The notes below the pieces were generated by a model that was not told the DNA's origin, did not search any database, and worked only from the letters and a program-made list of their open reading frames with translations. From the sequence record PZ445554.1: 64,000 nt of DNA; one strand, given 5' to 3'. Positions 51,268 through 61,489 of this stretch are shown in pieces. Made by a program: the position numbers and the translations under genes. Each line of letters begins with the position of its first letter. Position 1 is the first letter of the stretch. The stretch is from a phage.

Positions 51268-54200
51268 ATGGCCGAGATTAAAAGAAAGTTCAGAGCAGAA
51301 GATGGTCTGGACGCAGGTGGTGATAAAATAATCAACGTAGCTTTAGCTGATCGTACCGTAGGAACTGACGGTGTTAACGTTGATTACTTAATTCAAGAAA
51401 ACACAGTTCAGCAATATGATCCAACTCGTGGATATTTAAAAGATTTTGTAATCATTTATAATAATCGTTTTTGGGCAGCAACGGATAATATTCCAAAACC
51501 TGCTGGAAATTTTAATAGAATTCGTTGGAAAGCATTACGTACTGATGCCGTATATACAACCGTATCATCTGGACCATATCAATTAAAATCCGGAGAAGCA
51601 ATTTCAGTAGATACATCAGTTGGCAATGACATTGAGTTTACTTTACCACCTTCTCCGCTTGATGGAGAAACCGTAATAATTCAAGATATCGGTGGAAAAC
51701 CTGGCATAAATCAGGTTAAAATAAATTCTTCAAATCAGAGTATTGTCAATTTTAGAGGTGAACAGGTACGTTCAGTTTTAATGACTCATCCAAAGTCACA
51801 GATGGTATTCATTTTTAATAACCGTTTGTGGCAAATGTATATTGCTGATTATAGCAGAGAAGCTGCAATTGTTACTCCATCGACTGCATATCAAGCACAA
51901 TCTAATGATTTTATCGTACGTAGATTTACTTCTGCCGCACCGATTAATGTTAAACTTCCAAGATTTGCCAATCATGGAGATATCATTAATTTCGTTGATT
52001 TAGATAAATTAAATCCACTTTATCATACAATTGTTACGACATATGATGAAACGACGTCAGTGCAAGAAGTTGGAACTCATTCCATTGAAGGCCGTACATC
52101 GATTGACGGTTTCTTGATGTTTGACGATAATGAGAAATTGTGGAGATTGTTTGACGGGGATAGTAAAGCACGTTTACGCATTATAACAACTAATTCAAAT
52201 ATTCGTCCAAATGAAGAAGTCATGGTATTTGGTGCGAATAATGGAACAACCCAAACAATTGAACTTCAGCTTCCGACTGATATTTCTGTTGGTGATACTG
52301 TTAAAATTTCCATGAATTACATGAGAAAAGGACAAACAGTTAAAATCAAAGCTGCCGGTGAAGATAAAATTGCTTCTTCAGTTCAATTGCTGCAATTCCC
52401 AAAACGTTCAGAATATCCGCCTGAAGCTGAATGGGTAACAGTTCAAGAATTAGTTTTTAATGGTGAAACTAATTATGTACCAGTTTTGCAACTTGCTTAT
52501 ATAGAAGATTCTGATGGAAAATACTGGGTTGTACAGCAAAACGTTCCAACAGTTGAAAGAGTCGATTCTTTAAATAATTCTACTAGAGCAAGATTAGGCG
52601 TAATTGCTTTAGCTACACAAGCTCAAGCAAATGCTGATTTAGAAAATTCTCCGCAAAAAGAATTGGCAATTACTCCAGAAACGTTAGCTAATCGTACTGC
52701 TACTGAAACTCGCAGAGGTATTGCAAGAATAGCAACTACTGCTCAAGTAAATCAGAACACCACATTCTCTTTTGCAGATGACCTTATCATCACTCCTAAA
52801 AAGCTGAATGAAAGAACTGCTACAGAAACTCGTAGAGGTGTAGCTGAAATTGCTACGCAGCAGGAAACTAATACAGGTACTGATGATACTACAATCATCA
52901 CTCCTAAAAAGCTTCAAGCTCGTCAAGGTTCTGAATCATTATCTGGTATTGTAACTTTTGTATCTACCGCAGGAGCTACTCCAGCTTCTAGTCGTGAATT
53001 AAATGGTACGAATGTTTATAATAAAAACACTAATAATTTAGTTGTTTCACCTAAAGCTTTGGATCAGTATAAAGCTACTCCAACGCAACAAGGCGCAGTA
53101 ATTTTAGCAGTTGAAAGTGAAGTAATTGCTGGACAAAGCCAAGAAGGATGGGCAAATGCGGTTGTAACGCCAGAAACGTTACATAAAAAGACATCAACTG
53201 ATGCAAGAATTGGTTTAATTGAAATTGCTACACAAAGTGAAGTTAATACAGGAACTGATTATACTCGTGCAGTCACTCCTAAAACTTTAAATGACCGTAG
53301 AGCAACTGAAAGTTTAAGTGGTATAGCTGAAATTGCTACACAGGTTGAATTCGACGCAGGCGTCGACGATACTCGTATCTCTACACCATTAAAAATTAAA
53401 ACCAGATTTAATAGTACTGATCGTACTTCTGTTGTTGCTCTATCTGGATTAGTTGAATCAGGAACTCTCTGGGACCATTATACCCTTAATATTCTTGAAG
53501 CAAATGAGACACAGCGTGGTACACTTCGTGTAGCTACACAAGTTGAAGCTGCTGCAGGAACATTAGATAATGTTTTAATAACTCCTAAAAAGCTTTTAGG
53601 TACTAAATCTACTGAAGCACAGGAAGGTGTCATTAAAGTTGCAACTCAGTCTGAAACTGTGGCTGGAACGTCAGCAAATACTGCTGTATCTCCAAAAAAT
53701 TTAAAATGGATTGTGCAGAGTGAACCTACTTGGGCAGCTACTACTGCAATAAGAGGTTTTGTTAAAACTTCATCTGGTTCAATTACATTCGTTGGTAATG
53801 ATACGGTAGGTTCAACACAGCCATTAGAATCATATGAGAAAAATGGTTATGCAGTATCACCATATGAATTAAATCGCGTATTAGCAAATTATTTGCCATT
53901 AAAAGCAAAAGCTGTAGATAGTAATTTATTAGATGGTCTAGATTCGCTCCAGTTCATTCGTAGGGACATTGCACAAACAGTTAATGGTTCACTAACCTTA
54001 ACCCAACAAACGAATCTGAGTGCCCCTCTTGTATCATCTAGTACTGCTACATTCGGTGGATCAGTTTCAGCAAATAGTGTACTAACTATTTCTAATACTG
54101 GAACGGCAACTCGTCTGATTTTTGAGAAAGGACCTCAAACTGGAACAAACCCGGCTCAAACGATGACTGTCAGAGTGTGGGGAAATCAATTTAGTGGGGA

Positions 54201-55137
54201 ATCAGACACAACACGTTCTACCGTATTTGAAGTTAGTGATGAAACGTCTAGTCATTTTTATTCTCAGCGTAATAAAGCTGGAAATATAACATTTAATATT
54301 AACGGTACAGTAACACCGATAAATGTTAATGCTTCAGGAACATTGAATGCAAATGGTGTAGCAACATTTGGTAATTCAGTCACTGCAACTGGTGAAATTA
54401 TTTCTCGAAGCGCAAATGCTTTCCGTGCTATTAACGGAAATTATGGTTTCATTGTTCGCAATGATGGGTCAGTAACGAATTTTATGCTTACTGCATCGGG
54501 TGATCAAACTGGCGTATTTAATGGATTGCGTCCTTTAGCTATTAATAATGCATCTGGCCAAGTAACGATTGGTGAAAGCTTAATCATTGCAAAAGGTGCT
54601 ACTATAAGTTCGGGTGGTTTGACTGTTAACTCGAGAATTCGTTCTCAGGGTACTAAAACCTCTGATTTATATACCCGTGCGCCAACATCTGATACAGTAG
54701 GATTCTGGTCAATCGATATTAATGATTCAGCCACTTATAACCAGTTCCCGGGTTATTTTAAAATGGTTGAAAAAACTAATGAAGTGACTGGACTTCCATA
54801 CTTAGAACGTGGTGAAGAAGTTAAATCTCCTGGTACATTGACTCAGTTTGGTAACACACTTGATTCACTTTACCAAGATTGGATTACTTATCCAACGACC
54901 CCAGAAGCACGTACCACTCGCTGGACACGTACATGGCAGAAAACCAAAAACTCTTGGTCAAGTTTTGTTCAGGTATTTGACGGAGGTAACCCTCCTCAAC
55001 CTTCAGATATAGGAGCGATCCCATCTGATAATGGAATAATAGGTAATCTTACTATTCGCGATTTCTTGCGAATTGGTAATGTTCGCATTATTCCTGACCC
55101 AGTGAATAAAACTGTTAAATTTGAGTGGATTGAATAA
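51268..55137 (+). CDS. 34: long tail fiber proximal subunit gp34
   Basis: 1289-aa ORF; late promoter upstream; internal TETRRGxAxIAT repeat motifs. Confidence 0.95.
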   Translation: MAEIKRKFRAEDGLDAGGDKIINVALADRTVGTDGVNVDYLIQENTVQQYDPTRGYLKDFVIIYNNRFWAATDNIPKPAGNFNRIRWKALRTDAVYTTVSSGPYQLKSGEAISVDTSVGNDIEFTLPPSPLDGETVIIQDIGGKPGINQVKINSSNQSIVNFRGEQVRSVLMTHPKSQMVFIFNNRLWQMYIADYSREAAIVTPSTAYQAQSNDFIVRRFTSAAPINVKLPRFANHGDIINFVDLDKLNPLYHTIVTTYDETTSVQEVGTHSIEGRTSIDGFLMFDDNEKLWRLFDGDSKARLRIITTNSNIRPNEEVMVFGANNGTTQTIELQLPTDISVGDTVKISMNYMRKGQTVKIKAAGEDKIASSVQLLQFPKRSEYPPEAEWVTVQELVFNGETNYVPVLQLAYIEDSDGKYWVVQQNVPTVERVDSLNNSTRARLGVIALATQAQANADLENSPQKELAITPETLANRTATETRRGIARIATTAQVNQNTTFSFADDLIITPKKLNERTATETRRGVAEIATQQETNTGTDDTTIITPKKLQARQGSESLSGIVTFVSTAGATPASSRELNGTNVYNKNTNNLVVSPKALDQYKATPTQQGAVILAVESEVIAGQSQEGWANAVVTPETLHKKTSTDARIGLIEIATQSEVNTGTDYTRAVTPKTLNDRRATESLSGIAEIATQVEFDAGVDDTRISTPLKIKTRFNSTDRTSVVALSGLVESGTLWDHYTLNILEANETQRGTLRVATQVEAAAGTLDNVLITPKKLLGTKSTEAQEGVIKVATQSETVAGTSANTAVSPKNLKWIVQSEPTWAATTAIRGFVKTSSGSITFVGNDTVGSTQPLESYEKNGYAVSPYELNRVLANYLPLKAKAVDSNLLDGLDSLQFIRRDIAQTVNGSLTLTQQTNLSAPLVSSSTATFGGSVSANSVLTISNTGTATRLIFEKGPQTGTNPAQTMTVRVWGNQFSGESDTTRSTVFEVSDETSSHFYSQRNKAGNITFNINGTVTPINVNASGTLNANGVATFGNSVTATGEIISRSANAFRAINGNYGFIVRNDGSVTNFMLTASGDQTGVFNGLRPLAINNASGQVTIGESLIIAKGATISSGGLTVNSRIRSQGTKTSDLYTRAPTSDTVGFWSIDINDSATYNQFPGYFKMVEKTNEVTGLPYLERGEEVKSPGTLTQFGNTLDSLYQDWITYPTTPEARTTRWTRTWQKTKNSWSSFVQVFDGGNPPQPSDIGAIPSDNGIIGNLTIRDFLRIGNVRIIPDPVNKTVKFEWIE
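52650..53710 (+). repeat. ~7 copies of a 30-40-aa motif (TETRRGxAxIAT...TPKKL) in gp34
   Basis: Visible in translation (ANRTATETRRGIARIAT, NERTATETRRGVAEIAT, TDARIGLIEIAT, ...); DNA copies degenerate. Confidence 0.7.
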
Positions 55138-55145
55138 GAGGTATT

Positions 55146-56261
55146 ATGGAAAAATTTATGGCAGAGTTTGGACAAGGATATGTCCAAACGCCATTTTTAT
55201 CGGAAAGCAATTCAGTAAGATATAAAATAAGCATAGCGGGTTCTTGCCCGCTTTCTACTGCGGGGCCATATGTTAAATTTCAGGATAATCCCGTTGGAAA
55301 TCAAACATTTAGTGCAGGTCTTCATTTAAGAGTTTTTGACCCTTCTACGGGAGCATTAGTTGATAGCAAGTCATATGCTTTTTCTGCTTCAAACAATACA
55401 ACATCTGCCGCTTTTGTCAGTTTCATGAATTCTTTGTCAAACAATAGACTTGTTGCTATATTAACTAGCGGAAAGGTTAATTTTCCTCCTGAAGTGGTAT
55501 CTTGGTTAAGGGGAGCAGGAACTTCAGTTTTTCCATCAGATTCAGTATTGTCAAGATTTGACGTGTCATATGCTGCTTTTTATACTTCTTCTAAAAGAGC
55601 TATTGCATTAGAGCATGTTAAACTAAGTAATAGAAAAAGCACAGATGATTATCAAACTATTTTAGATGTTGTATTTGATAGTTTAGAAGACGTCGGAGCT
55701 ACAGGATTTCCTAAAAGAACATACGAAAGCGTTGAGCAATTTATGTCTGCGGTTGGAGGAACTAATAATGAAATTGCGCGATTGCCAACTTCAGCTGCTA
55801 TAAGTAAACTTTCTGACTACAATTTAATTCCTGGTGATGTTCTTTATCTTAAAGCACAACTATATGCTGATGCTGATTTACTTGATCTTGGAACTACAAA
55901 TATATCTATTCGTTTTTATGATGCATCAAATGGATATATTTCCTCGACCCAAGCTGAGTTTACTGGGCAAGCTGGGTCTTGGGAATTAAAAGAAGATTAT
56001 GTAGTTGTTCCTGAAAATGCAGTAGGATTTACGATATATGCACAAAGAACTGCCCAAGCAGGTCAAGGCGGCATGAGAAATTTAAGCTTTTCTGAAGTAT
56101 CAAGAAATGGCGGCATTTCAAAACCTGCTGAATTTGGCGTCAACGGTATTCGCGTTAATTATGTCTGCGAATCGGCTTCACCTCCAGATATAATGGTACT
56201 TCCTACACAAGCCTCTTCTAAAACTGGCAAAGTGTTTGGGCAAGAATTTAGAGAAGTTTAA
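55146..56261 (+). CDS. 35: long tail fiber hinge connector gp35
   Basis: 371-aa ORF; synteny. Confidence 0.9.
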   Translation: MEKFMAEFGQGYVQTPFLSESNSVRYKISIAGSCPLSTAGPYVKFQDNPVGNQTFSAGLHLRVFDPSTGALVDSKSYAFSASNNTTSAAFVSFMNSLSNNRLVAILTSGKVNFPPEVVSWLRGAGTSVFPSDSVLSRFDVSYAAFYTSSKRAIALEHVKLSNRKSTDDYQTILDVVFDSLEDVGATGFPKRTYESVEQFMSAVGGTNNEIARLPTSAAISKLSDYNLIPGDVLYLKAQLYADADLLDLGTTNISIRFYDASNGYISSTQAEFTGQAGSWELKEDYVVVPENAVGFTIYAQRTAQAGQGGMRNLSFSEVSRNGGISKPAEFGVNGIRVNYVCESASPPDIMVLPTQASSKTGKVFGQEFREV

Positions 56262-56265
56262 ACTG

Positions 56266-56285
56266 AGGGAGCCTTCGGGTTCCCT
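56266..56285 (+). terminator. terminator after gene 35
   Basis: AGGGAGCC-UUCG-GGUUCCCU hairpin (one G-U pair) then UUUUUCUUU. Confidence 0.75.
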
Positions 56286-56292
56286 TTTTCTT

Positions 56293-56300
56293 TATAAATA
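56293..56300 (+). promoter_or_regulatory. late promoter TATAAATA (gene 36)
   Basis: exact TATAAATA 24 nt before gene 36 ATG. Confidence 0.75.
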
Positions 56301-56323
56301 ATATTAAAATAAAGGGGCATATA

Positions 56324-56974
56324 ATGGCTGATTTAAAAGTAGGTTCAACTGTAGGTGGATCTGTCATTTGGCATCAAGGAAATTTTCCATTGAATTCAGC
56401 CGGTGACGATGTACTCTACAAATCATTTAAAATATATTCAGAATATAATAAACCACAGGCAGCTGATAACGATTTCGTTTCTAAAGCTAATGGTGGTACT
56501 TACACCGGTCCAATTACTATTAATTACGGGGTAAATAGTTATCTTCAATTAAGTAATAATGAAACCCCCATTCGAATTCGTTCTGGTGGCGGTACCGGTA
56601 ATACTCTTGTAGTTGGCGGCTCTTCCGGCGGTATTAGTTTTAGACCTGCAGGTAGTGAAATCACTACTGGACAAATTACTATTACACCAGAAGGTTTGAC
56701 AACATTTACCAGGGCTGTAACGGCTCCATCGATAACTGTTACATCTACTCCTTCCGCAGCATCTGATGTTACTCGTAAAGATTATGTTGATGGAGCAATA
56801 AATACTGTTACAGCAAATGCAAACTCTAGGGTATTACGCTCTGGAGACACTATGACAGGAAATTTAACTGCGCCAAACCTTTTTTCACAGAATCCTGCAT
56901 CTCAACCTTCACACGTTCCACGATTTGACCAAATCGTAATTAAGGATTCTGTTCAAGATTTCGGCTATTATTAA
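56324..56974 (+). CDS. 36: long tail fiber distal connector gp36
   Basis: 216-aa ORF; late promoter upstream. Confidence 0.9.
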
Positions 56975-56982
56975 GAGGACTT

Positions 56983-59967
56983 ATGGCTACTTTAAAACAA
57001 ATACAATTTAAAAGAAGCAAAACTGCAGGTCAACTTCCTGCTGCTTCAGTATTAGCCGAAGGTGAATTGGCTATTAATTTAAAAGATAAAACAATTTTCA
57101 CAAAAGATGACTCAGGCAATGTTATAGAATTAGGTTTAAAATATGGAGGAACAATTGATGGTTCTTTAACTGTTAATGGAAATATAATTGGAAATTTAAC
57201 AGGTAACGCTGCAACTGCAACGAAATTAAAAACAGCACGAAAAATTAATGGTATATCCTTTGATGGGTCAAAAGATATCACGCTAACTCCATCTGACATA
57301 AATGTCAATAGCACAACGTTTATAAAAAATAATGGCGAATTACCTGTTGATGCTAATTTAGATACGTATGGGCCTGTTGAAGAATATCTTGGAGTTTGGT
57401 CGAAAGCAACTTCAACCAACGCTCAACCAGCAAATAAATTTCCAGAAGAAAATGCTGTAGGTGTGCTAGAAGTATTTGTGGCCGGTCAATTTGCTGGTAC
57501 TCAGAGATATACAACTAGATACGGAAATGTTTATATTCGTTCCTTGACTGCTACATGGAACGGAGTAAATGGTCCGTGGAGTGTGTGGCGAAATATTCAA
57601 TCCGGTACTCGTCCACTGTCAACAACAATTGATCTTAATGATCTAGGAGGCGCTGAACACTTTGGTTTGTGGCGAAATAGTTCAAATTCCATTGCTACCT
57701 TTGACAGAAATTTCCCAGAAGAGGGGTCGTCAGCTCAAGGTCTTTTGGAAGTATATGAAGGTGGAAACTATTCTCGTACACAAAGATATACAACCAGATT
57801 TGGTGTTGTATATACTCGTTGTCTTGCTGCCGCATGGGATGCTTCCGCGCCTAAATGGGGACCGTGGCAACAAGTCGGTAATGTCACACCAGCGACTTTC
57901 TATGACGGAGATCTGAATGATTTTAAAACCCCTGGGTTATATAATATTTTAGGCACTGATGCCGTTATTAACTGTCCTACAGGTGAAGGTTTGCCGACTG
58001 TTATTGTTGGTTTGCTGGAAGTTAAACAACGTGCTTCTGGCGGTGCTATTTTCCAAAAATTTACTACTGCCGGAACGGGTGCAACTACTCGCGATCGTAT
58101 TTTTGAGCGTGCATATACTGGTGGTGTGTGGGGTGCATGGAACGAAGTATATACATCTTACTCTCTGCCAATTACTTTAGGTATGGGTGGTATTAAAACT
58201 CAATTAGCGGAGCTAGATTGGCAAACATTTGATTTTGTTCCTGGTAGTATGTTTAGCGTTCCTTTGAACAAAATAAAGAACATGCCAGCTAATATGAATT
58301 GGGGCACGATTGACGGAAACTTAATTATGTTTTCTGTTGGTCCTAGCGAGCACACCAGCACAGGACGTACTGTTCAGGTTTGGCGTGGTACTGTATCCCA
58401 GACAAACTACCGTTATTTTGTCGTTCGTGTGTTCGGTAATTCTGGAAATAGAACTTGTACAGTTCGCCGTGTTGTTCTTGAAGATGGTCGCCACACATGG
58501 ACAGCTCAACAAGATTTTAATGGTGCTGTTAACTTCGGTGCTCCTACCAATTTTAACTCTACTGTTAACCTTAATAACACTACCACATTTAAAACAGAAG
58601 TTAAATTTCGCTCATTGAATGCATTCCGTATGTATGGCGGAAAATTTGGTACATTTTTACGTAATGATGGAGAGAGTCTTTATATTCTTTCCACCGACGA
58701 AGATGATCAAGATGGAAACTTTAATACAAATAGACCTTTCCGTTATGAATTAAGAACTGGTGATGTTACTTTGGGTGGTGCTAGTGGTGCTAACGTTTTA
58801 AAATTAAAACGTGATTCTCTCACCGCATTTTTTGGCGGTGATATTAACATTAAAGGCACGATGACTTTTGACGCCGGACGTTTAGGATCACGAGATTATT
58901 TTAAATTTAACCATTGGGGTGATAGTAATAATGCGCGTGATAACATTATTCAGTTAGAAGACAGCAAAGGCGCTCATTTTTCCACTGAACGTACTTTAGC
59001 GACTGGTGCAATTAAGACTAAATTTTTTGGTGAAATTGAATCCGATGGTAAATTGGTTATTAAACGTCCGGGTGATTCTATTGTATTATCAACAACTGCT
59101 AGTAATTCTTTGCATATTCGTGGTGACATAGACGGGACTGGTAACTGGTATATTGGTAAGGGTGGTGCTGATAATGGATTAGCGTTATATAGTTATGCTA
59201 CTAATGCTGGTGTATACATTACAAACGCAGGAGATATCACGCTAAGTCCAAAAGGCGTCGAAATGGCCCATGTCAATAACGTTCGATTATATGTTCATGG
59301 TGAACGTTGGACTGCTAGTCAACCAGGTGATTGGGGTAGTCAGTGGCAAGTGGAAGCGCCAATATTCGTCGATCATGGTTATGTTTCACAGGATTGTTAT
59401 TATCCAATTATTAAAGGAAGAAGTGTAATCACCAATCAAGGGTTTGTAACTGCCGTCGATCTTGGTATTCGTCGTGTCAATAACAATTGGGGACAAGCAA
59501 TTATTCGTGTTGGATCTGCGGAGGCATCGCCAGCGGCTGGACACCCTAACGCGGTATTTGAATTTCATTACGACGGTACTTTCTATTCTCCTGGTAATGG
59601 TAACTTTAGCGATGTGTATATTCGTTCCGATGGTCGTCTTAAGATTAATAAAAAAGAGCTAGAAAACGGAGCACTTGAAAAAGTATGCCGACTGAAAGTT
59701 TATACATACGATAAGGTTAAGTCTATTAAAGATCGTAGTGTTATTAAACGTGAAGTTGGTATTATTGCTCAGGATCTTGAAAAAGAATTACCGGAAGCTG
59801 TGTCTAAAGTTGAAGTTGATGGATCTGATGTTCTGACAATTTCTAACTCCGCTGTGAATGCTCTTTTAATTAAGGCTATCCAAGAAATGAGCGAAGAAAT
59901 TAAAGAATTAAAAACGCCTTTCTTCACTAAAATTGCTCGCAAAATTAGTAAATATTTTAAATTCTAA
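56983..59967 (+). CDS. 37: long tail fiber distal subunit gp37 with C-terminal chaperone-like domain
   Basis: 994-aa ORF; N-terminus conserved; last ~113 aa ([13 protein letters not shown]...[15 protein letters not shown]...[16 protein letters not shown]) resemble an intramolecular chaperone auto-processing domain. Confidence 0.92.
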
Positions 59968-59973
59968 CAACAA

Positions 59974-59986
59974 GGGGCAACGCCCC
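59974..59986 (+). terminator. weak stem-loop between genes 37 and 38
   Basis: GGGGC-AAC-GCCCC then CUUU, followed by GGAG SD of gene 38. Confidence 0.4.
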
Positions 59987-60001
59987 CTTTGGAGATAAAT
60001 T

Positions 60002-60802
60002 ATGGCAGTAGTTGGTGTTCCTGGTTGGATTGGTAGTTCATCCGTAAATGAAACAGGACAACGATGGATGAGTCAAGCGGCTGGTCAATTAAGATTGGGT
60101 GTTCCTTGCTGGATGAGTCAATTTGCAGGTCGCTCACGAGAAATTATTCATACACTTGGAGCAGACCATAACTTCAATGGTCAATGGTTCCGAGATAGAT
60201 GTTTTGAGGCCGGTAGTGCACCTATAGTGTTTAATATTACAGGTGATTTAGTATCATATTCTAAAGATGTTCCTTTATTCTTCATGTACGGGGATACGCC
60301 TAATGAATATGTTGTTCTTAATATTCATGGTGGTGTTCATATGTGGGGTCGTGGTGGTAATGGTGGATACACTCACTCGGGAGGCGACGGTAACGGTACA
60401 CAAGGCGGTCATGTTATTCAAAATGATATCGGTGGACGGCTTCGTATTTGGAACTACGGTGTTATAGCTGCTGGCGGTGGCGGCGGTGGTGGTATTGCAT
60501 ATCGTCCACACTCAGGGGCAAAATGGCAAGATATCGGTGGCGGTGGTGGTCGACCTTTCGGTGGCGCTGGCGGTGGCGGTTATTCCGGTGGTGCTGCTTC
60601 GTATGAAGGTCCGGGTGGTGGTTATGACTATGGTAACGCACACTCCGGCGCTGGTGGTAATGCTGGTGCTGCTGGTCAGAATGCATGGTCTGACGGCGGT
60701 AAAGTTCTTAAAGTTGGTGTTGGTGGTGCGTCTGGTCATGCAGTGTTTGGATCTTCTCCAACTTGGGGTGTTGTTGGAACAATTTACGGACCAAGAGTAT
60801 AA
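60002..60802 (+). CDS. 38: gp38 receptor-recognising adhesin (T2 type, glycine-rich)
   Basis: 266-aa ORF; N-terminus [13 protein letters not shown]; C-terminal half has poly-Gly motifs separating variable segments. Confidence 0.9.
60300..60750 (+). repeat. glycine-rich motifs of gp38 flanking variable segments
   Basis: GGT/GGC-rich runs encoding [47 protein letters not shown]. Confidence 0.8.
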
Positions 60803-60832
60803 TGTGAATAAATACCCTTAAAAGGAGGGTCT

Positions 60833-61489
60833 ATGGCAGCACCTAGAATATCATTTTCGCCCTCTGATATTCTATTTGGTGTTCTAGATCGCTTGTTCAA
60901 AGATAATGCTACCGGGAAAGTTCTTGCTTCCCGGGTAGCTGTCGTAATTCTTTTGTTTATAATGGCGATTGTATGGTATAGGGGAGATAGTTTCTTTGAG
61001 TACTATAAGCAATCAAAGTATGAAACATACAGTGAAATTATTGAAAAGGAAAGAAATGCACGCTTTGAATCTGTCGCCCTGGAACAACTCCAGATAGTTC
61101 ATATATCATCTGAGGCAGACTTTAGTGCGGTGTATTCTTTCCGCCCTAAAAACTTAAACTATTTTGTTGATATTATAGCATATGAAGGAAGATTACCTTC
61201 AACAATAACTGAAAAATCACTTGGAGGATATCCTGTTGATAAAACTATGGATGAATATACAGTTCATTTAAATGGACGTCATTATTATTCCAACTCAAAA
61301 TTTGCTTTTTTACCAACTAAAAAGCCTACTCCCGAAATAAACTACATGTACAGTTGTCCATATTTTAATTTGGATAATATCTATGCTGGAACGATAACCA
61401 TGTACTGGTATAGAAATGATCATATAAGTAATGACCGCCTTGAATCAATATGTGCTCAGGCGGCCAGAATATTAGGAAGGGCTAAATAA
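60833..61489 (+). CDS. t: holin T
   Basis: 218-aa ORF with single N-proximal TMD (VAVVILLFIMAIVWY) and large periplasmic domain. Confidence 0.93.
   Translation: MAAPRISFSPSDILFGVLDRLFKDNATGKVLASRVAVVILLFIMAIVWYRGDSFFEYYKQSKYETYSEIIEKERNARFESVALEQLQIVHISSEADFSAVYSFRPKNLNYFVDIIAYEGRLPSTITEKSLGGYPVDKTMDEYTVHLNGRHYYSNSKFAFLPTKKPTPEINYMYSCPYFNLDNIYAGTITMYWYRNDHISNDRLESICAQAARILGRAK

Follow-up and report, generated by a model that had tools for sequence, protein, structure and literature searches.

An Ox2-type tail-fibre tip module, with a predicted self-cleaving gp37 and a gp38 adhesin, in a Tequatrovirus genome

The window, a 64,000-nucleotide stretch of phage DNA (record PZ445554.1), contains a long-tail-fibre operon in which the open reading frame listing gives the order g34 (1289 aa), g35 (371 aa), g36 (216 aa), g37, g38 and the t holin gene. 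Gene 38 lies directly 3′ of g37 (stop at 59967), from which it is separated by a gap of 34 bases, and 5′ of t (Table 1). Because the first codon of the SDGRLK motif is base 59626, the segment 59626–60802 runs exactly from the Ser882 codon of gp37 through the g38 stop. The preliminary description had given gp37 a length of 994 residues, with a tail of about 113 residues starting at SDGRLK near residue 882, and these figures proved to be exact (Ser882, 113 residues, base 59626). Gene order, domain content and conserved residues can all be read directly in the sequence. A GC-rich hairpin in the g37/g38 gap (approximately 59974–59989) was rejected as a feature, as it folded no better than shuffled sequences (z = -0.06), and neither tRNAs nor Rfam families were found in the whole window. 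The rest of the genome is that of a typical Tequatrovirus, with about 96–98% identity to many sequenced relatives.

Table 1. Features of the g37–g38 region and the adjoining holin gene, in window coordinates. GRM, glycine-rich motif; HVS, hypervariable segment.
Feature	Coordinates	Strand	Basis
g37, distal long-tail-fibre subunit precursor, 994 aa	56983..59967	+	ORF; phrog_1699
Predicted mature gp37, residues 1–881, ending DVYIR	56983..59625	+	cleavage-site alignment
Predicted scissile bond, R881-S882	59623..59628	+	cleavage-site alignment
C-terminal intramolecular chaperone / autocleavage domain, residues 882–994 (113 aa)	59626..59964	+	Pfam Peptidase_S74
g38, tail-fibre tip adhesin, 266 aa, Ox2 allele with G193	60002..60802	+	Pfam GP38, phrog_2056, Ox2 identity
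gp38 N-terminal attachment domain, residues 1–42	60002..60127	+	Pfam Gp38_N (PF21721), 69 bits, E 3.2e-19
GRM1, residues 115–122, WGRGGNGG, approximate boundaries	60344..60367	+	invariant G116 R117 G118 G119 G121
GRM2, residues 158–164, GGGGGGG	60473..60493	+	invariant G158–G163
HVS2, residues 165–178 (14 aa)	60494..60535	+	variable block in alignment
GRM3, residues 179–187, GGGGGRPFG	60536..60562	+	invariant G179–G183 R184 P185 F186 G187
HVS3, residues 188–215, with codon 193 (60578–60580) inside	60563..60646	+	alignment, Ox2 comparison
GRM4, residues 216–225, GAGGNAGAAG	60647..60676	+	invariant G216 G218 G219 G222 G225
GRM5, residues 241–250	60722..60751	+	invariant G241 G242 A243 G245 A247 V248 G250
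t holin	60833–61489		Phage_holin_T match, E 4e-117

The gp37 precursor is matched along residues 1–989 by phrog_1699, the long tail fiber protein distal subunit family (E 3.7e-224), and shares 97% amino-acid identity with gp37 of phage ph0021. Three tandem repeats at residues 121–392 gave no Pfam match even at relaxed thresholds. An exact look-up among 15 billion proteins found neither gp37 nor gp38; both are new alleles, by one residue or a few.

The extreme C terminus of this distal subunit (882–994 of 994) is occupied by a chaperone domain. The Peptidase_S74 profile (PF13884) matched residues 882–940 over 57 of its 58 positions (1–57) with 45.4 bits (E 1e-11), about double the curated cut-off of 22 bits, and its first position aligns at Ser882; the earlier suggestion that the tail resembles an intramolecular chaperone auto-processing domain is thus borne out. 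Thirty-four PHROG tail-fibre families match this segment of gp37 alone. A profile built from five T-even gp37 C termini finds gp37 of phage S16 (6f45_A, E 7e-9), another tail fibre (8jov, 1.6e-5) and the self-cleaving ICA domain of MyRF (7dc3, E 1.7e-4). An AlphaFold2 model of residues 852–994, computed from the single sequence without an alignment, is mostly helical and of low confidence (mean pLDDT 48.7, pTM 0.34).

The predicted cleavage site of T6-like gp37, DVYIR^SDGRLKI, has been aligned to the autocleavage site of S16, DLNVS^SDRRIKK, and S16 gp37 is itself autocleaved, with an intramolecular chaperone of 113 residues (PMC7917993). In the alignment, the VYIRSD.RLK block, with its Ser and Lys, is invariant in gp37 of T6, T2, RB32 and fFiEco06. 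Ser882 and Lys887 are the predicted catalytic pair, in which Ser882 would be the scissile serine and Lys887 its activator, and their spacing is that of the T5 fibre chaperone (pb1), where the activating Lys1269 lies five residues downstream of the scissile Ser1264 (PMC4690869). The DVYIR end of the mature subunit is the predicted docking surface for gp38. It could be argued that the last 113 residues are instead a degenerate S74-like domain that stays uncleaved, with gp38 binding elsewhere or serving in assembly only. This appears very improbable given the invariance of the cleavage block, a Peptidase_S74 score at twice the curated cut-off and the reported autocleavage of S16 gp37, and PMC3157838, citing Drexler 1986, also reports gp37 processing for T2 and T6.

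Gene 38 encodes a protein that is matched over its full length by known adhesin families. Downstream of the attachment domain, Pfam GP38 (PF05268) covers residues 47–266 with 228 bits (E 1.7e-67; profile 1–218 of 218), and phrog_2056 covers residues 1–266 (E 1.9e-109). The search of known structures returned the receptor-binding domain of PP01 gp38 (9v85, E 2e-65) and gp38 of S16 (6f45_D, E 5e-43), in agreement with the adhesin-like character claimed for the protein in the preliminary description. Because Peptidase_S74, GP38 and Gp38_N were matched at E values of 1e-11, 1.7e-67 and 3.2e-19, respectively, the features of gp37 and gp38 are not due to chance. Within the attachment domain, Trp9, Trp22 and Trp37 are invariant in an alignment of six phages (this phage with Ox2, RB32, fFiEco06, T6 and T2), and the attachment-domain tryptophans of gp38 have been described as prongs into gp37 (PMC7917993).

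Glycine makes up 26% of gp38 overall and 38% of residues 110–250. Four poly-Gly motifs had been counted earlier, and four runs of at least three glycines are indeed present (158–164, 179–183, 190–193 and 205–207), but by the convention of the field gp38 has five glycine-rich motifs (GRMs) and four hypervariable segments (HVSs) (PMC3157838, PMC12032242). The runs at 190–193 and 205–207 fall inside HVS3, and GRM1, GRM4 and GRM5 contain Gly pairs only. The six-phage alignment revealed invariant Gly blocks at 116–121, 158–163, 179–187, 216–225 and 241–250, with variable stretches between them, and a conserved C-terminal strand follows GRM5 up to residue 266.

Several database records label g38 as a distal long tail fiber assembly catalyst, and a shorter gp38-like family, phrog_1121, likewise matches gp38 over its first ~60 residues. 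Both would fit a gp38 of the T4 type, namely an assembly chaperone that is released once gp37 has folded and leaves the receptor site on gp37 itself. Against this, gp38 matches the adhesin profile over its full length and also the solved adhesin structures, and gp37 ends in a predicted cleavable chaperone. A PDB sequence search with the whole of gp37 returned T4 gp34 fragments, S16 gp37 and others, with no T4 gp37 entry, and no match to the T4 gp37 tip structures. Furthermore, amber mutants of T6 gp38 produce virions of normal morphology that do not adsorb (PMC3157838), and receptor-specificity variants of Ox2 are reported to map to the hypervariable regions of gp38 (PMC12892980). The T4-type arrangement was rejected on the Peptidase_S74 end of gp37 and the outcome of the PDB search, as the preliminary description had anticipated, and a T4-type role for gp38 is extremely improbable.

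The closest relative of the adhesin region is phage Ox2, and this near-identity is likewise a direct observation. The Ox2 record X05675.1 (3′ end of g37, 38 and t; 1987, Henning laboratory), which provides 1.7 kb of Ox2 sequence for the comparison, is identical to window positions 59212–60950 at 1737 of 1739 bases, and its genes have the same order and spacing. Identity is complete over the last 251 residues of gp37 (251/251), and gp38 is identical at 265 of its 266 residues (99.6%), residue 193 being the sole difference. At 60523 the record has G and the window A, which from the codon position is silent at Lys174, and at 60578 the record has C and the window G, giving CGT (Arg193) in Ox2 and GGT (Gly193) here. 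In practice, therefore, the module is that of phage Ox2, already known and a new allele by one residue. Gly193 is also found in gp38 of ph0021, RB32 and fFiEco06, and since every other close relative examined has it, the Arg193 of the 1987 record is more probably a sequencing error or a stock variant. A natural Gly193/Arg193 polymorphism that changes the OmpA variants or secondary receptors used seems distinctly unlikely; if it were true, the window would come from a relative of Ox2 whose host range differs subtly, the two together forming a natural one-residue specificity switch.

An alignment of the gp38 variable segments had been put forward in the preliminary description. Run with T2, T6 and Ox2, it showed segments that differ from those of T2 and T6 and match Ox2 except at residue 193. 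Given that gp38 here has the hypervariable loops of Ox2, Escherichia coli OmpA is the most likely receptor, and recognition would depend to some extent on LPS: Ox2 binds the loops of OmpA (PMC12032242), and RB32, whose gp38 is 89% identical to the one here, requires OmpA and LPS (PMC3157838). HVS2 moreover contains an R-x-H-S-G-A motif with a resemblance, but no more, to the OmpA contacts predicted for "type 1" OmpA-binding gp38, where R165 V166 H167 S168 G169 A170 are the key predicted residues (PMC12032242). The module could be as described here and yet recognize a receptor other than OmpA, or not OmpA alone, if Gly193 or other host factors redirected it to a porin, OmpC or another, or to LPS. 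Residue 193, which differs from the 1987 record, is part of HVS3, Ox2 and RB32 are said to require at least two host factors (PMC3157838), and Ox2 variants from Henning's group with altered receptor specificity are reported to carry changes in the gp38 hypervariable regions, with single gp38 substitutions changing receptor use (PMC12892980, citing Drexler 1989, 1991). However, Arg193 is the outlier among the relatives, the remaining HVS residues are all those of Ox2 and the HVS2 motif points to OmpA, so that another receptor is considered unlikely.

Taken together, the locus very probably encodes the distal tip of a T2/T6/Ox2-type long tail fibre in a Tequatrovirus, formed by a predicted self-cleaving gp37 and a gp38 adhesin with OmpA as its most likely receptor, and the sequence contains nothing that speaks against the Ox2-type reading. 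For cleavage, docking, the monomeric stoichiometry of gp38 and the receptor, the following model is inferred from homologues; the place of gp38 at the virion fibre tip is likewise predicted from its 265/266 identity to Ox2 gp38 and from the literature on Ox2, T6 and S16. Gp37 would be synthesized as the 994-residue precursor, with its last 113 residues acting as a Peptidase_S74-family intramolecular chaperone that helps three chains to fold as a trimeric fibre. After correct trimerization, Ser882, activated by Lys887, would cut the Arg881-Ser882 bond and the chaperone would leave, so that mature gp37 would expose its flat DVYIR tip. By analogy with the S16 structure, a single copy of gp38 would then dock on this tip by its N-terminal domain through Trp9, Trp22 and Trp37. 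The five glycine-rich motifs in its C-terminal half would form a polyglycine-II sandwich, from which four hypervariable loops would project to bind the outer-membrane receptor.

The module fixes the likely primary receptor of the phage (OmpA), and it places the phage in the T6/Ox2 gp37–gp38 compatibility group, an assignment that can help to predict host range or to engineer adhesin swaps. It amounts to a classical Ox2 tip sequence within a genome that is otherwise typical of Tequatrovirus; as a textbook module, long known, it is of little import beyond annotation and raises no new question.

Among other known systems, T6 and T2 share the architecture and the cleavage motif. The T2 type assigned to the module in the preliminary description therefore holds at the level of the T2/T6/Ox2 group, but the subtype is T6/Ox2 and not T2. 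T6 gp37 is also 994 residues long, with 87% identity over the last 194 residues, and T6 gp38, which binds Tsx, is 75% identical with different HVSs. In contrast, gp38 of T2, which binds FadL/OmpF, is only 49% identical, again with different HVSs, and T2 gp37 is 38% identical over the last 194 residues, its pre-cut region being unrelated except for the VYIR block and its chaperone lacking the last 13 residues. PP01 gp38 (PDB 9V85, PMC12892980) is nearly identical at residues 38–115 and has the GRM scaffold in common, but its hypervariable loops differ and its receptor is OmpC of Escherichia coli O157.

The gp37–gp38 pair of S16 (PDB 6F45, Dunne et al. 2018) likewise has a 113-residue C-terminal intramolecular chaperone cut before SD..(I/L)K, and a gp38 that attaches by the Trp prongs of its N-terminal domain and has a polyglycine-II sandwich with variable loops. 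It is distant in sequence, with other gp38 loops and a gp37 whose alignable part begins only about seven residues ahead of the cleavage site; the cut follows Ser in S16 and would follow Arg in this gp37, and the S16 receptor is Salmonella OmpC. The Peptidase_S74 domains of the K1F endosialidase and the T5 L-shaped fibre pb1 also sit at the C terminus of a trimeric fibre and have a scissile Ser followed five residues later by a Lys. In those proteins, however, receptor binding or degradation falls to the mature tip itself, whereas here the departure of the chaperone would open a site at which a separate adhesin docks.

The ORF listing revealed a standard T-even long-tail-fibre operon at 51268-61489 on the + strand. 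The boundaries first proposed for the host-range module, 59626-60802, proved exact, with 59626 opening the Ser882 codon of gp37 and 60802 being the final base of the g38 stop codon. A motif scan placed the late-promoter motif TATAAATA ahead of g34 (51226) and g36 (56293) and, because none was found ahead of g38, this gene is presumably co-transcribed with g36-g37. The g36 motif directly follows a hairpin and T run after g35 (together 56265-56300). In gp35, the hinge protein, residues 58-112 scored above threshold for the Pfam family ILEI (interleukin-like EMT inducer; 33 bits, cut-off 27), an unexpected family name for such a protein.

Features of the long-tail-fibre operon and segments within it
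Feature	Coordinates	Strand	Detail
g34		+	1289 aa
g35	55146-56261	+	371 aa
Hairpin	56265-56286		GC-rich, then T run
g36		+	216 aa
g37	56983-59967	+	994 aa
gp37 shaft repeats	~57343-58158		three in tandem, ~86 aa each
gp37 insertion	58531-58548		NFGAPT, residues 517-522
gp37 Gp34_trimer domain (Pfam)	~58546-58743		residues 522-587
g38	60002-60802	+	266 aa
t (holin gene)	60833-61489	+	Pfam Phage_holin_T, E 4e-117

The preliminary description held that gp37 ends in a chaperone-like domain, and profile comparison bears this out. The tail comprises 113 residues, with SDGRLK starting at residue 882, and Peptidase_S74 ("chaperone of endosialidase") matches residues 882-940 from profile position 1 (Pfam; 45.4 bits, curated cut-off 22, E 1e-11). 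The C termini of 34 PHROG families, the majority with tail-fibre or tail-protein annotations, match this 113-residue segment alone. In a PDB sequence search the tail matched the distal subunit of the S16 long tail fibre (6f45_A), starting a few residues before the Ser; with a profile built from the gp37 tails of five phages (this phage, T6, T2, RB32, and fFiEco06) that match rose to E 7e-9, and 8jov, another tail fibre (1.6e-5), and 7dc3, the self-cleaving ICA domain of human MyRF (1.7e-4), were also matched. VYIRSD.RLK is invariant in the five-phage alignment, and the stretch just upstream is unrelated in T2 and RB32. In S16 gp37, the intramolecular chaperone is the last 113 residues and is autocleaved at DLNVS^SDRRIKK, to which DVYIR^SDGRLKI of T6-like gp37 has been aligned (PMC7917993); the latter predicted site is literally present in this gp37. 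The predicted catalytic pair, S882/K887, has the same five-residue spacing as in the T5 L-shaped fibre, where Lys1269 activates the scissile Ser1264 (PMC4690869). Single-sequence AlphaFold2 of residues 852-994, without an alignment, gave an unusably poor model (pLDDT 48.7).

The accompanying gp38 is, as proposed, of the glycine-rich adhesin type. Gp38_N matches residues 1-42 and GP38 residues 47-266 (Pfam; whole GP38 profile, 228 bits), with phrog_2056 ("tail fiber protein; host specificity") matching the full length. Among solved structures, gp38 matched 9v85 (E 2e-65), the receptor-binding domain of PP01 gp38 (PMC12892980), and S16 gp38 (6f45_D, E 5e-43). Glycine accounts for 26% of residues overall and 38% in residues 110-250. 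Alignment with Ox2, RB32, fFiEco06, T6, and T2 revealed three invariant tryptophans of the attachment domain (W9, W22, and W37) and five invariant glycine blocks (~115-122, 158-164, 179-187, 216-225, and 241-250) with four variable stretches between them, the same pattern as the field's scheme of five glycine-rich motifs (GRMs) and four hypervariable segments (HVSs) (PMC3157838, PMC12032242). The four poly-Gly motifs initially counted do exist as runs of at least three Gly, where the field counts five GRMs; two of these runs fall within HVS3, and thus the count differs by convention only.

The top tblastn match was gp38 of phage Ox2, in a 1739-base record from 1987 (X05675.1). Direct comparison showed 59212-60950 to be identical to it at 1737/1739 bases, and the last 251 residues of gp37 to be identical as well. 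The two base differences lie in gp38, at 60523 (codon 174), which by codon-position reading appears silent at K174, and at 60578 (codon 193), the sole protein difference, where this gp38 has G and the record R. Because the related complete genome ph0021, RB32, and fFiEco06 all have G193, R193 is the outlier and may reflect a variant stock or a sequencing error of the time; between ph0021 gp38 and that of the window, residue 174 (N in ph0021) is the single difference. Exact look-up found neither the gp37 nor the gp38 sequence in a collection of 15 billion proteins. Taken together, the comparisons leave two possibilities for the window, namely Ox2 or a very close relative lacking a complete genome in the collections searched.

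The best complete genome over g37-g38 is ph0021 (97.0% DNA identity; gp37 97% identical in protein, with a six-residue indel), and many Tequatrovirus genomes share 96-98% identity with the window over other 25-kb parts of it. Relative to ph0021, gp37 carries the six-residue NFGAPT insertion, and its substitutions concentrate in residues 700-815, differences that read as mosaicism on a small scale within the shaft. Identity between shaft repeats 1 and 2 is 38%, and LLEV, TQRYTTR, and W..W motifs are common to both; no Pfam family matches the repeats (residues ~121-392), phrog_4618 ('tail collar fiber protein') covers residues 106-325, and the repeats may be knob-like domains. The Gp34_trimer region (wider match 440-630) aligns to solved C-terminal fragments of T4 gp34 (5nxf and 4uxe, E ~1e-10), so the proximal and distal half-fibres have a module in common. 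Over 39001-64000 (25.0 kb), the best genome matches fall in 3-6 pieces spanning ~26.2-26.8 kb in relatives, which therefore carry ~1.2-1.8 kb of extra DNA that the window lacks, possibly mobile endonuclease genes. OR584013.1 ('Pseudomonas phage PsgM02F', host label Pseudomonas coronafaciens) is a Tequatrovirus, 97% identical over g37-g38, with an Ox2-like gp38 (99.6% identity) that is presumably OmpA-binding; its host label looks doubtful.

By homology, gp37 would be assisted in trimerising by the chaperone at its own C terminus; in a correct trimer, S882/K887 would cut the R881-S882 bond and the chaperone would leave. The exposed DVYIR tip would then receive one gp38, with HVS loops projecting from a polyglycine sandwich to bind the receptor. 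OmpA is the best inference for the receptor of this allele, since the OmpA extracellular loops are the binding target of Ox2 (PMC12032242), RB32 depends on OmpA and is affected by LPS composition (PMC3157838), and in this gp38 HVS2 (YRPHSGA) is similar to a stretch of predicted OmpA contacts, R-V-H-S-G-A, in "type 1" OmpA-binding gp38. RB32 gp38 is 89% identical to the present one. Ox2 is listed with the phages requiring more than one host factor (PMC3157838).

The arrangement differs from that of T4, as the preliminary description had maintained: no T4 gp37 tip structure matched gp37 in the PDB sequence search, and gp38 is of the adhesin type. The observation in that description is confirmed and its interpretation supported. 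The module is already known, and the allele is new by one residue: the processing, capping, GRM/HVS design, and Ox2 sequence have all been known for years, much of this since 1986-1989, and structures followed in 2018 and 2026. Among adhesin-bearing phages, the gp37 and gp38 alignments group the module with T6 and Ox2, as the T6/Ox2 subtype, and not with T2 itself.
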